64,000 nucleotides of DNA from Candidatus Caldarchaeum sp. (GCA_038885755.1 JAVZZH010000003.1:1-64000), one strand, 5' to 3'. Counted from the first letter of the stretch, positions 1 to 64,000 are shown. Numbers and translations are program-made. Notes: generated from the letters alone by a model not told the origin.

Positions 1-560
1 GCTGTCTCGCAGTGGGGGCAGACGGGCACTACTCGGTGGCTTTCGACGAGGTCTCCGCTTTCGTAGGCTTTCTTGAGCAGGTGCCAGACGTGCTCCATGT
101 ATTCCTCCCTACGGGTTTCGTAGGCGTTGTCGTAGTCGAGCCAGAGCCCGAGCCTCTCGCTGGCTCTCCGCCAGTGATAAAGGTAGTGGTCGACGACTTT
201 GTTGGCTTCCTCCACGAAGCGCTCAAGCCCGATCTTTTCGATGTCCCGCTTGCTCGTTATCCCCAGCCGTTTCTCAACCTCTATCTCCGTCGGCAGCCCC
301 TGACAGTCCCATCCAGCCCTCCGCCAGACGTTGAAGCCCTGCATGGTTTTATACCGTAGGACGATGTCCTTGTAAACCCTGCCCCTCGTATGCCCGATGT
401 GCATGTACCCGTTCACGGTCGGAGGCCCCTCCAGAAAAGAGAAGAGAGGCCCGTTCTTGTTCAGCTCCTCCACCTTCCTGAGGATGTCGAGCTTCTTCCA
501 CCTCTCCATCACAGCTTGCTCGACCGCTTGCGGTGAATATCTGCGTCCCAGCTCAATCAT
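1..560 (-). CDS. ileS: Isoleucine--tRNA ligase, N-terminal part (runs off window start)
   Basis: Manual translation from ATG at 560: MIELGRRYSPQAVEQ...FLEGPPTVNGYMHIGH...RAGWDCQGLPTE. HIGH motif and GWD.xGLP.E are typical of IleRS. Not in the ORF track. Confidence 0.93.
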   Translation of the reverse strand, partial: MIELGRRYSPQAVEQAVMERWKKLDILRKVEELNKNGPLFSFLEGPPTVNGYMHIGHTRGRVYKDIVLRYKTMQGFNVWRRAGWDCQGLPTEIEVEKRLGITSKRDIEKIGLERFVEEANKVVDHYLYHWRRASERLGLWLDYDNAYETRREEYMEHVWHLLKKAYESGDLVESHRVVPVCPHCET

Positions 561-60876: not shown

Positions 60877-61536
60877 CTACAGCTCGACTTTTACGGGCTT
60901 TCCACGGGTGGCTTTGAGGTAAACGCTTTTGACGCTTCTCTGCCTCTTCTCCAGCTTCTCGACAACCCTGTTGAACACGGCTTCGGCGTTTTCAGCTATC
61001 TTCTCGTCGCTGTCCTCCTCGAGACCTACGAGGCACGCAACCTGCTGGTTTTTTCTCAGCTGAACCTGCACGCTGTTGGCAAATCGTTTCACCAACCTTT
61101 GAAAATCTGACCCGGGAGGGATGGGTATCGGTGTTTTACCGCGTGAGCCAAGAGCAGCTCCCAAAGCTCTCGCAGCAAGCCCCATCAAAGCCGGCTCAAC
61201 CAGCACAAAGTCGTACTGGGAGGCGATCTTCTTAGCCTCCTTCTTCTTCCCAACAAGCGGCTCCAGCTCCTCCCTGCTTAAAACCTTCGACACACCCTCT
61301 GTCCGGCCGGCTTCGAGAGCTAGGTTGCCCGAAGCAACCACGAGTATCTTCCTCTTCTTACGCCCCAAGTCGTTGGGCAGCTCAACGACTTCTGTGAAAC
61401 GGTTCTGAGGCTTCGACAGGTCTACCCCCGTGATGTTAACGATCATCTCGATCGATTGCTTGAACTTGGAAGGCATCATCCTCTCCCTAACCTGCTTGAC
61501 GGCGTTGACAAACTTCGAACTGACGGCACGCATCAA
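60877..61536 (-). CDS. rpl1: Ribosomal protein L1
   Basis: F.QS.E..VN..G.DL, LG.RGK.P and Y.K.T.G.PV. Confidence 0.95.
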   Translation of the reverse strand: MMRAVSSKFVNAVKQVRERMMPSKFKQSIEMIVNITGVDLSKPQNRFTEVVELPNDLGRKKRKILVVASGNLALEAGRTEGVSKVLSREELEPLVGKKKEAKKIASQYDFVLVEPALMGLAARALGAALGSRGKTPIPIPPGSDFQRLVKRFANSVQVQLRKNQQVACLVGLEEDSDEKIAENAEAVFNRVVEKLEKRQRSVKSVYLKATRGKPVKVEL

Positions 61537-62030
61537 TTCTTATCACCTAGGTAGCTGTCATACTTGCCGTTCTCAACCTGCTTGACAACCTCCTTAGCGG
61601 GCATTCCATCAACCTTGACCCCCATGCTCACGCAGGTGCCGAGGATCTCCTTGACAGCAGCCTTCAACGTCTTAGACCTCATGTCTGGCAGTTTCTTGCT
61701 AGCGATACTGACGATGTCGGAGAACTTGACGTCGGCCACGAAATCCTTGCCCGCGGTGCCGGAGCCCTTAGATATGCCGGCCGTGCTCGCTATGAGCGCA
61801 GCCGTGCTCGGCGTGCCGACCCTGACCGTGAACCTCTTCGTGTCGGTGTCGACGACTATCTCGACAGGAACACGCATCCCCATGTATTCGCCCGTCTGCT
61901 TGTTGACCTCTTCAGCCACTGCCAGAACATTCAACCCCAGCGGTCCCAGCGCAGGCCCTAGAGGAGGGCCGGCAGTGACCTTACCGCCTTCCACGAGAAA
62001 CCTGAAGGTTTTTTCACCCATCCTATCCAA
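61533..62030 (-). CDS. rpl11: Ribosomal protein L11
   Basis: GG..T.GPPLGPALGPLG and K...GTC.SMG. Confidence 0.97.
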   Translation of the reverse strand: MDRMGEKTFRFLVEGGKVTAGPPLGPALGPLGLNVLAVAEEVNKQTGEYMGMRVPVEIVVDTDTKRFTVRVGTPSTAALIASTAGISKGSGTAGKDFVADVKFSDIVSIASKKLPDMRSKTLKAAVKEILGTCVSMGVKVDGMPAKEVVKQVENGKYDSYLGDKN

Positions 62031-62057
62031 CTGCTGCCAACGGCTTACTCATAAATG

Positions 62058-62957
62058 CTACGTCTTCGACACAGGCCTTACGGCGTCTATGGAGATTGAT
62101 ATGGGTAGCTGGAAAGCAGCCTCACGCAGTTCCAGCGTGACCTCCCTCTTCGCCTTCTCCACCCTGATGACCTTGCCTGTGATGCCCTTGAGAGGCCCTG
62201 AGACTATTTCCACTACTTGGCCCGTCTCTATCAAGTCTATCAAGGGTTTTTCGACTAGGTGGGGGGCTATCGTCTCGAGGCTGACAGTCATCGGCGGCCT
62301 TGCTTTGACGTTCCGTATGTTCTGAAGGACGTCGGCCACCACCTCACGCCGTGTCGTCTCCACGAAGACGTATCCCTTCAGAGCTGGAAGAATGAGGACG
62401 GATGCGACGGGAACCTTCTCGAACAGCTTGAACAACGGTACGAACTCTTCCCTTCTACGCCCGCCTCCAGAGTAAACCCAAGCCTCCATCTCCTCGTTTC
62501 CGTCATAGGAGTAGAACCAGTTGTAGCCCCCCTCCTCCTTCTGCGTCTTCAGCAACACCAGAGCATACCTGCCCCCCCGTTTAAGCTCCACCGGCGTCGG
62601 AAAGTTGAGGTCAGCCCAGCCCTCCACCCTGAGAAGCAGAGGGTCATAACGCGCCTCTCCCAGCCACTGCTCCGACAGCTCCCCCTCCTCTCCAACCGAA
62701 TGAATCCTAGCACGGAGAGGCTCCGACGGCTCGCCCGACTTGCTGATGTAAACCGAGACTCTCTCGACGGCGGTGGTCTTGGGCGATGTGAAGAAAACCG
62801 CCAGATGCTCCTCGTCAGACACTCGTGCAGCGCCCTTAGCCTCCTTGACGAAGTCTAGGAAGACTCCGTGGAACCTAGACTCGAGAATGCCGGCTACCGA
62901 CCTCTCCTGCCCGACCGTGGTCTTTACCGCGAAATACTTCATCTCGGCCTTAACCAA
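62058..62957 (-). CDS. spt5: Transcription elongation factor Spt5/NusG with ~150-aa internal insertion
   Basis: YFAVKTT.GQE..VA and LKGYVFVE (NGN) plus G..VEIVSGP.KG..G.V (KOW); conserved secE-spt5-rpl11 context. Confidence 0.93.
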   Translation of the reverse strand: MVKAEMKYFAVKTTVGQERSVAGILESRFHGVFLDFVKEAKGAARVSDEEHLAVFFTSPKTTAVERVSVYISKSGEPSEPLRARIHSVGEEGELSEQWLGEARYDPLLLRVEGWADLNFPTPVELKRGGRYALVLLKTQKEEGGYNWFYSYDGNEEMEAWVYSGGGRRREEFVPLFKLFEKVPVASVLILPALKGYVFVETTRREVVADVLQNIRNVKARPPMTVSLETIAPHLVEKPLIDLIETGQVVEIVSGPLKGITGKVIRVEKAKREVTLELREAAFQLPISISIDAVRPVSKT

Positions 62958-62999
62958 CCCGGGATAACTTTTTCTCAGTCCATTATAAAGTATAGGGGT

Positions 63000-63170
63000 T
63001 CAGCCTACTTGGAAAGCAATGGCTATGAAACGGATTAGGAAGGCTATCAAGCCGATTATGCTGAGGCCGAGGAGCGTCATGCGCAGAGTTATGGAGTATT
63101 CTTTCCAGGTTGGTTTTTTCGCCATCTTGAAAAGCGTGACGACCGACTTTATGAAGCTCACCAGCCCCAT
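63000..63170 (-). CDS. secE: Protein translocase SecE/Sec61-gamma
   Basis: Manual translation MGLVSFIKSVVTLFKMAKKPTWKEYSITLRMTLLGLSIIGLIAFLIRFIAIAFQVG; below the ORF-track size cutoff. Confidence 0.93.
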   Translation of the reverse strand: MGLVSFIKSVVTLFKMAKKPTWKEYSITLRMTLLGLSIIGLIAFLIRFIAIAFQVG

Positions 63171-63204: not shown

Positions 63205-64000
63205 TTATCCTCTACCGCCTCCAAGCAAGAAGTAGAGCAGAGAAGCCTCCGTGTGCATCCTGTTCTCAGCCTGGTCGTATATTACTGATTGAGGGCCGTA
63301 GGCTACTTCAGGGGTGACCTCCTCGTTCAAACGCATCGGCATGCAGTGCATGAACTTGGCGGACGGCTTGGCTAGCGCCATCAACTCCCTGTTCACTTGG
63401 TAGTTAGGCATGAAGGCCTCAAGCTTCCTCGCCCGCTCCTCGTCTTGGCCCATCGAGACGAAGACGTCGGTGTATACAAAGTCGGCATCGGCCACTGCTT
63501 CACGCGGGTCGTCGGTCAGAACAACCTCGCCCCCAGACCTTCCAGCCGCGCGGACCGCCTTCTCAACCTCCTCCGGGGCCGGCCTGTACTGAGGTGGAGT
63601 GGCGACCCATATCCTCATCCCCAACAGGGCTGACGCCTGCATCAGAGAAACGCAGACGTTGTTGCCGTCTCCGACGAAGGCTATCTTCGACTTGAAAGGC
63701 GTCTTGGAGAACTCTAAGACAGTCATAACGTCTGCAAGAGCTTGGCAGGGATGATGCCTGTCGCTCAGCGCATTTATCACGGGTATTCTACCGTTGCCGC
63801 TCAACTTCACCAAGTCTTGATGGCTGAACACACGAGCCACTAAGGCGTCTACGTACCTGCCCATCACCTTGCCCGTGTCCTCCACGGTCTCGCCTCTGCC
63901 AAGCTGCAGGTCTCCCCAGCCGAGGTAGAAGGAGTCGCCTCCCAACTTCGACACAGCCGACTGGAACGACACTCTTGTCCGTGTGGAAGGCTTCTGGAAG
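63205..64000 (-). CDS. argF: Ornithine carbamoyltransferase (5' end outside window)
   Basis: FQKPSTRTRVSF at the window edge, HPCQALAD, VGDGNNV, YTDV..SMG, FMHCMP and DQAENR.H. Confidence 0.96.
   Translation of the reverse strand, partial: FQKPSTRTRVSFQSAVSKLGGDSFYLGWGDLQLGRGETVEDTGKVMGRYVDALVARVFSHQDLVKLSGNGRIPVINALSDRHHPCQALADVMTVLEFSKTPFKSKIAFVGDGNNVCVSLMQASALLGMRIWVATPPQYRPAPEEVEKAVRAAGRSGGEVVLTDDPREAVADADFVYTDVFVSMGQDEERARKLEAFMPNYQVNRELMALAKPSAKFMHCMPMRLNEEVTPEVAYGPQSVIYDQAENRMHTEASLLYFLLGGGRG

Follow-up and report, generated by a model that had tools for sequence, protein, structure and literature searches.

Archaeal Spt5 is regarded as a minimal transcription elongation factor, composed of an NGN domain followed by a KOW domain, and the accessory domain II found in certain bacterial homologs (NusG) is positioned in the b2-b3 hairpin of the NGN domain. 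Here we describe the spt5 gene in a 64,000-nucleotide stretch of DNA from Candidatus Caldarchaeum sp. (GCA_038885755.1 JAVZZH010000003.1:1-64000; hereafter the window, meaning the whole stretch), which encodes a protein whose NGN domain is interrupted by a predicted lectin-like beta-sandwich of about 154 residues. Domain II of Thermotoga maritima NusG is an insertion within the NGN domain that binds double-stranded DNA (0.04 uM) and RNA polymerase (RNAP) and has been proposed to serve thermal adaptation, and the inserted domains of T. maritima and Aquifex aeolicus NusG are described as mutually unrelated (PMC5224480). The Aquifex mini-domain is placed "at a position similar to Spt4" (PMC3382729), and the bacterial inserted domains are characterized as large, positively charged and located in a beta loop (PMC2995049). 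For the archaeal factor, the M. jannaschii Spt4/5 complex provides the reference, in which A4, Y42 and L44 of Spt5 line the pocket for the RNAP clamp coiled coil, this pocket lies opposite the Spt4 surface, E46 bonds S39 of Spt4, and helix a4 of Spt4 contacts NGN helices a1 and a3 (Hirtreiter et al., 2010, PMC2896526).

The original prediction, made from the nucleotide sequence alone, had described a 299-residue Spt5 in the secE-spt5-rpl11 slot with its NGN domain interrupted, directly after helix 1, by about 150 residues, and our results confirmed both the identity of the protein and the point of interruption. Pfam recognized the Spt5-NGN domain (PF03439) in two stretches of the open reading frame (E 7.1e-13; 48.8 bits against a cut-off of 22.4), the best of which equates residues 181-229 with profile positions 31-79, and the KOW domain (PF00467) at residues 246-274 (24.1 bits against a cut-off of 22.3). 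The NCBIfam equivalog of archaeal Spt5, TIGR00405, also matched in two stretches; its score of 102.1 bits (90.5 in the six-frame search) exceeds the cut-off of 69.95. The adjacent genes encode SecE and L11. In addition, a profile built from 26 sequences, namely the window's Spt5 and 25 homologs, was aligned with the solved M. jannaschii Spt5 (E 7.8e-33), pairing profile positions 9-31 with M. jannaschii residues 3-25 and positions 182-302 with residues 25-145. By this alignment the insertion is a clean one at M. jannaschii residue 25, between helix a1 and strand b2, with no NGN residue lost, and it approximately doubles the length of Spt5 relative to ordinary archaeal Spt5. The features of the locus are the following:

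62058..62957, minus strand: spt5 gene, 299 codons plus stop
62874..62957, minus strand: N-terminal part of the NGN domain, residues 1-28, with strand b1 and helix a1 (profile 9-31 aligned with M. jannaschii Spt5 3-25; strand 7-13 and helix 18-28 in the model)
62412..62873, minus strand: inserted lectin-like/DUF4082-type beta-sandwich (predicted), residues 29-182, about 154 residues
62250..62411, minus strand: C-terminal part of the NGN domain, residues 183-236, with b2, b3, a2, b4 and a3, holding Y196, F198 and E200
62061..62249, minus strand: linker and KOW domain, residues 237-299 (Pfam and fold match)
63000..63170, minus strand: secE, upstream neighbor, 56 residues (PF00584, E 6.6e-6)
61533..62030, minus strand: rpl11 (L11), downstream neighbor (PF00298 and PF03946, E about 1e-21)

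The insert was originally placed at 62418-62867, corresponding to residues 31-180, and is placed here at residues 29-182. The start of spt5 is ambiguous (62942-62957, minus strand), as a TTG opens the 299-residue frame and an ATG forms codon 6; a start equivalent to M6, giving 294 residues, is used in some Spt5 homologs.

The insertion is real, translated and fixed throughout the family in the organism's only detected Spt5. A class-wide six-frame profile search covered 76 genomes of the window's class, comprising 18 of its own family (four genera, the window's genome included) and 58 of three sister families. A split, long Spt5 was found in 18/18 genomes of the family, with the match starting at profile position 10-28 and an open frame of 302-376 residues, whereas in all 58 genomes of the sister families the Spt5 match began at position 1, in frames of 130-257 residues, and the insert form was absent (0/58). 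Other Spt5 genes of the same class and phylum gave one contiguous profile match in frames of about 147-257 residues. Similarly, a profile of the insert alone detected a single locus per family genome (18/18), which was always spt5; it found nothing in two of the sister families (0/19 and 0/4 genomes), and in the third gave weak matches in 2 of the 35 genomes, in a non-Spt5 open reading frame. All 17 relatives' loci that were retrieved match the insert at E <= 3.7e-49. One Spt5 was found in the window's own genome (86.5% complete), where the insert profile detected no donor or paralog at E <= 1, only the spt5 locus.

Protein searches gave a concordant distribution. A word-index search yielded 25 clusters of proteins, 281-324 residues long and 43-94% identical, all of which align through the insert, and their named sources are Spt5 proteins of Candidatus Caldarchaeum, Aigarchaeota or Nitrososphaerota. 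The same kind of search with the C-terminal half (lengths 164-524 residues) returned 20 long forms of the Caldarchaeum lineage and 4 short forms. No other archaeal Spt5 with an NGN insertion was seen among the matches listed (150) and the five lowest-scoring genomes of a 301-genome phylum sample. Two records of the Caldarchaeum lineage, P0033 (173 residues) and P0027 (235 residues), begin or end inside the insert; they were considered as stand-alone insert-domain proteins and rejected, being truncated or frameshifted Spt5 records.

Thirteen public sequencing runs from 8 studies contain all or part of the window, and the runs with spt5 sequence are labelled hot-spring metagenomes. Contigs over spt5 were checked in four runs from three studies and showed no joints and no indels. 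DNA contigs cross the 62411/62412 junction (X1 records 5 and 6; X5 records 14 and 15) and the 62873/62874 junction (X5 record 16). In addition, a 4108-nucleotide contig from a metatranscriptomic library (X8 record 20) covers the whole of 61900-63100, and two further RNA-library contigs (X7 records 18 and 19) cross the 62411/62412 junction; gaps in the X7 coverage of spt5 carry no meaning. Misassembly, one of the ways in which the original prediction could have failed, is thus contradicted by 18 independent assemblies and by contigs continuous over both junctions, and no splicing-out of the insert was seen, as the RNA-library contigs cross both junctions without a skip (DNA carry-over being possible). 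The reported absence of an intein signature also holds: there are no Pfam matches to HINT or homing-endonuclease domains, the boundaries read ...H-G-V... and ...K-V-P-V-A, so that the insert starts with G-V and ends with V-P, without the Cys/Ser/Thr start of an intein or its His-Asn end with Cys/Ser/Thr next to it, and the predicted fold is a beta-sandwich.

Codon-level comparison by the Nei-Gojobori method in 11 unsaturated pairs showed that the median ratio of non-synonymous to synonymous substitution rates (dN/dS) is highest in the insert (0.118; range 0.056-0.349), followed by the NGN domain (0.041) and the KOW domain (0.026). This purifying selection at the codon level indicates that the insert is translated, and that its constraint is about three times looser than that on the core.

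The core of the protein is intact around the insert. In the AlphaFold2 model of the window's Spt5, built from the 26-sequence alignment, the two NGN halves (model residues 5..236) reassemble on the M. jannaschii NGN domain (3lpe_A) with Z 13.8 and a root-mean-square deviation (rmsd) of 1.6 A over 83/84 residues, and the KOW part matches KOW folds at Z 8-9.7. In the profile alignment, the pocket residues A4, Y42 and L44 of M. jannaschii correspond to A10, Y196 and F198, and the Spt4-contacting E46 corresponds to E200; Y196 and E200 are invariant in 26/26 homologs, and A10 is invariant in a nine-sequence alignment (A3). The Spt4 gene (PF06093) is present in all 18 family genomes (match of 50 bits in the window's genome), and its product is a normal zinc ribbon of 63 residues. 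Since the NGN and KOW folds, the pocket residues, the Spt4-contacting glutamate and the Spt4 gene are all kept, normal Spt4/5 function in elongation is expected, and the window's Spt5 should still work as an ordinary Spt4/5 elongation factor.

The M. jannaschii Spt4/5 contacts, mapped by alignment, put the insertion point (the end of a1 and the start of b2) on the face that Spt4 occupies and not on that of the polymerase pocket, and in this position the insert would be expected to point out of the elongation complex, next to Spt4. A rough topological argument from the order of strands assigned by DSSP, with simple up-down connectivity assumed and no coordinates used, would place the loops with P80-L81 and DPLL close to the N and C termini of the sandwich, and hence near the NGN domain, with the K60 and R127 loops at the opposite end.

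Comparison with insert-less relatives suggests how the site may have looked before the insertion. The nearest insert-less Spt5 proteins found are 166-169 residues long and share 53-59% identity in the C-terminal half (one carries the name Candidatus Geocrenenecus dongiae), and insert-less relatives have about 20 residues at the site of the insert. In the AlphaFold model of one such sister-lineage Spt5, P0041, a beta-hairpin (strands 30-35 and 38-44) is predicted between a1 (18-29) and b2 (49-53), with per-residue confidence (predicted local distance difference test, pLDDT) of 82-88 in this region and only 6 sequences in the alignment. This extra hairpin is not present in M. jannaschii Spt5. 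The sandwich may have been placed into a hairpin such as that of the sister lineage, or have developed from it.

The insert itself is confidently predicted as an all-beta sandwich. The AlphaFold2 model of the window's Spt5 has a mean pLDDT of 86.2 and a predicted template modelling score (pTM) of 0.62; in ten-residue blocks, starting at residue 31, the pLDDT lies at 89-95 up to about residue 150 and at 81-94 over the remainder as far as residue 180, and DSSP assigns only strands between residues 32 and 180. The closest structural match of the insert (residues about 30-183) is a baseplate protein of Staphylococcus aureus phage phi812 (9euf_0; Z 16.7, rmsd 2.2 A, 150 aligned residues), and further matches were found with a capsid protein of PBCV-1 (8h2i_bG; Z 15.9), the tail tip of mycobacteriophage Bxb1 (9d93_Pa; Z 14.4), the lectin-like domain of Clostridioides difficile Cwp84 (4ci7_A; Z 14.2, rmsd 2.6 A, 142 aligned residues, model range 27..181) and a cyanophage capsid protein (9jwb_Z; Z 12.1). 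Weaker matches include PHR domains (Z about 10.8) and several carbohydrate-binding modules (Z 8-11). From the pattern of residues, a beta-sandwich of jelly-roll type, as in surface or ligand-binding proteins, had been proposed, and this proposal is borne out by the model, by the fold matches and by sequence kinship to DUF4082 and Lectin_like domains.

This kinship emerged from a phmmer search with the insert against 1.84 billion representative proteins, which gave 17 matches at E <= 1e-3, comprising 5 Spt5 proteins or fragments and 12 other proteins. The 12 non-Spt5 proteins are 337-1806 residues long and each contains 2-6 repeated matching stretches (E 7.4e-9 to 4.6e-4); DUF4082 and/or Lectin_like Pfam domains occur in 8/12, and several also carry phage-tail domains (Sipho_Gp37, SPP1_Dit, Sipho_tail) or beta-helix domains. 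Among those with names are DUF4082 proteins of Archangium and large proteins of Chloroflexota. The insert profile delimits 29 repeat domains in 11/12 of these relatives; as these targets had been preselected by the phmmer search, the count is not independent evidence of homology. Residues F56 (86%), W114 (90%), Y131 (97%) and Y145 (66%) of the window's Spt5 are shared by these proportions of the 29 non-Spt5 domains, and K60, P80, L81, D105-P106-L107-L108, R127, L175 and E180 are conserved in Spt5 inserts only. Pfam searches of the 26 Spt5 homologs at E <= 0.1 gave Lectin_like in 8 (best E 9.4e-4), DUF4082 in 4 (best E 2.5e-4) and a faint PHR match in 1 (E 0.068). On these comparisons the insert is homologous to the repeated DUF4082/Lectin_like modules of large secreted bacterial proteins and phage-tail proteins, and since homology and fold agree and the Pfam cut-off is missed, we class it as a divergent relative within this superfamily, not a Pfam member.

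Three further observations concern the relatives of the insert. At R167 (62457-62459), the window's Spt5 and its closest relative P0002 have an arginine, where tryptophan is present in 88% of Spt5 inserts and 76% of the non-Spt5 domains, a local relaxation at a core position. A non-Spt5 frame of 548/549 residues weakly matches the insert profile in two genomes of one sister family (family f4, genus g11; G043:C4:24794-25072 and G042:C38:2725-3003; E 5.5e-4 and 1.2e-3), and a public protein of 549 residues, P0037, contains two insert-type domains with a Lectin_like match and what by eye resembles a signal peptide and a C-terminal anchor. P0037 and the two frames may belong together, in which case proteins of this type would be candidate donors of the insert. 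In a protein atlas, the nearest clusters, taken as leads only, are unnamed 169-residue proteins of Bacteroidota (0.93) and a Lectin_like cluster (0.88).

The charge of the insert differs from that of the core: in 26/26 homologs the insert is net negative (-1 to -12), with an isoelectric point of 4.6-6.4, and the NGN and KOW domains are basic. Because it is acidic in all 26, the insert is unlikely to be a general nucleic-acid binder. In one sub-lineage (P0021, P0022 and P0024, with Spt5 of 323-324 residues; locus L013), an extra acidic stretch of about 17-20 residues was observed within the insert, which there is 173-175 residues long with a net charge of -10 to -12.

Two observations outside spt5 may be added. 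Upstream of secE, an open reading frame (63205-63999, minus strand) that runs past the end of the window resembles, by eye, a carbamoyltransferase-type enzyme. Elsewhere in the genome (G000:C1:28547-31105) and in relatives, the match to the largest RNAP subunit (rpoA1 model, 867 positions) lies in frames of about 1254-1383 residues in all 43 genomes with a match, so that A' and A'' appear to be encoded in one frame across the class.

As to function, we lean toward the reading that a real, family-wide insertion has left the core of Spt5 in place and that the insert is an outward-facing accessory module for protein docking or complex stabilization, not a nucleic-acid clamp. According to this reading, a lectin-like sandwich would occupy the a1-b2 loop on the Spt4 side of the NGN domain, opposite the polymerase pocket, would extend out of the elongation complex next to Spt4, and, being acidic, would dock a protein or stabilize the complex. 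A docking or stabilizing role is the most likely one, although confidence in the function itself is low. Several points weigh against it. Comparisons of sequence, fold and literature found no partner, ligand or activity of the insert. The outward position rests on topology and on the published M. jannaschii Spt4/5 descriptions, and a pTM of 0.62 denotes an uncertain arrangement of domains. An insert within an essential protein may be under purifying selection for no other reason than that it must fold; net acidity is compatible with a local basic patch, and K60 and R127 are conserved. The match of the window's insert to DUF4082 in Pfam, 12.3-13.9 bits, lies below the gathering cut-off of 28.4, and the RNA-library contigs may include DNA carry-over and do not strictly establish expression. 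In addition, no family-specific large indel, a possible mark of a docking site, was found in Rpo2 or in the N-terminal part of Rpo1, in a comparison that addresses large changes: Rpo2 frames are 1117-1153 residues in the family (one of 986 residues, in G008, is probably cut) and 1117-1130 residues in two sister families (those of 708-1107 residues are probably cut), and the N-terminal Rpo1 match has an equal span in all families.

The absence of a co-varying large RNAP indel is also what would be expected if the insert were a passenger, captured once in a tolerant hairpin and kept only because an essential protein can ill afford to misfold, with no specific activity of its own. We consider this the main rival and take it seriously, although on balance it seems unlikely: the insert evolves about three times faster than the NGN and KOW domains, the sister families manage without it, and the window's own Spt5 has lost an otherwise conserved tryptophan (R167), but the insert is kept in every family genome, across four genera and down to 43% identity, with no case of decay or loss, and the Spt5-specific invariant residues K60, P80, L81, D105-P-L-L108 and R127 are not explained by the fold family. 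A more elaborate form of the docking reading is, in our judgment, quite unlikely as a whole. It regards the acidic sandwich as something that archaea evolved in parallel with the extra regions of eukaryotic Spt5, forming a dedicated docking platform by Spt4 and the upstream DNA that recruits a basic partner to the elongating polymerase. Candidates for this partner would be chromatin proteins, ribosomal or termination factors, and regulators specific to the lineage. The conserved K60 and R127 loops at the far end would bind it, and the P80-L81 and DPLL loops would anchor the sandwich to the NGN domain or Spt4.

A functional analog of bacterial NusG domain II, stabilizing the elongation complex at high temperature through binding to RNAP, to the upstream DNA or to another nucleic acid, is distinctly unlikely. 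In its favor, the T. maritima domain also lies within the NGN domain, with DNA and RNAP binding and a proposed thermal role (PMC5224480), the Aquifex mini-domain is compared in position with Spt4 (PMC3382729), and the runs with spt5 sequence are labelled hot-spring metagenomes; against it, the bacterial domains are described as large and positively charged (PMC2995049) and the insert is acidic in all 26 homologs, sister families of the same order lack it, and its best fold matches are not nucleic-acid binders. A ligand sensor, with the lectin-like module recognizing a carbohydrate or another small molecule and thereby linking elongation to metabolism, appears very improbable. Its fold neighbors do include carbohydrate-binding modules and the lectin-like domain of Cwp84, and its sequence relatives carry Lectin_like or DUF4082, but no binding-site residues are known for DUF4082 (the literature search gave only papers that mention its name), a cytoplasmic glycan ligand is not obvious, and a common fold is no proof of function. 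Finally, an artefact or removable element, whether by misassembly, intein or intron, is scarcely credible, as nothing was found in its favor. Family-wide presence in 18 independent assemblies, continuous contigs without a joint in four runs from three studies, and codon-level purifying selection led us to set aside misassembly, an intron, an intein and a fusion artefact; the lack of HINT and homing-endonuclease matches and a sandwich confidently folded and continuous with the NGN domain point the same way.

The prediction had also left room for the insertion being a feature already described for this lineage, and no such description was found. The literature searched on archaeal Spt5/NusG and on Caldarchaeum/Aigarchaeota (subscription papers and supplements lying outside the search) contains no description of an NGN insertion, the passages available from a 2026 survey of elongation-factor domains in 40 archaeal proteomes do not mention it (PMC13289920), and the lineage's first genome paper contains no occurrence of Spt5, NusG or Spt4 (PMC3082918). 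A domain insertion within the NGN domain is thus known in kind from Thermotoga and Aquifex NusG, and its lectin-like archaeal form is undescribed in the literature searched. The finding shows that a core elongation factor tolerates large insertions on its Spt4 face, and it clearly exemplifies how a module of extracellular type has been taken into the transcription machinery of the cytoplasm. As a discrete, removable domain, the insert offers a natural handle for asking what docks on the outer face of the archaeal elongation complex, and for annotation it is a clean family-level marker (18/18 versus 0/58 genomes). The value of the finding hinges on what the insert domain binds.

Compared with the solved archaeal Spt5 proteins (M. 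jannaschii, 4zn1 and 3lpe; P. furiosus, 3p8b), the window's Spt5 shares the NGN and KOW domains, the secE-spt5-rpl11 position, the pocket residues and the Spt4 partner gene, and differs by the 154 extra residues between a1 and b2. With bacterial NusG domain II (T. maritima, 2xhc; A. aeolicus, 1m1g), the nearest known feature in kind, it has in common an accessory globular domain within the NGN domain of some thermophiles, on the Spt4 side. However, the bacterial domains are described as basic and binding nucleic acid, whereas the insert described here is an archaeal, probably lectin-like sandwich placed directly after a1, and it lacks the net positive charge of domain II, all 26 homologs being net negative. 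In the fold search, 2xhc and 1m1g match the model through the NGN and KOW parts only (Z 9.4-9.7, rmsd about 10), and no NusG is among the 17 phmmer matches of the insert. As the T. maritima and A. aeolicus domains are unrelated to each other, the insert of the Caldarchaeum family would represent a third independent acquisition, standing as an example beside the two bacterial ones. The PHR domains of MYCBP2 and BTBD2 (3gbw and 3no8; Z 10.8-10.9), beta-sandwiches of similar size, are intracellular examples of the fold class, with a weaker match than the lectin-like and phage domains. A further likeness is to DUF4082 (PF13313) and Lectin_like (PF18560) domains, Cwp84 and the phage baseplate and tail-tip proteins, with which the insert shares sequence homology, the F/W/Y/Y core and the same predicted fold (Z 14-17, rmsd 2.2-3.1 A, 142-150 residues). 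Those modules occur as repeats in large proteins that are secreted, displayed on the surface or built into virions, whereas the insert is present as a single copy inside a cytoplasmic transcription factor, where it has invariant residues of its own, DPLL, R127 and K60.

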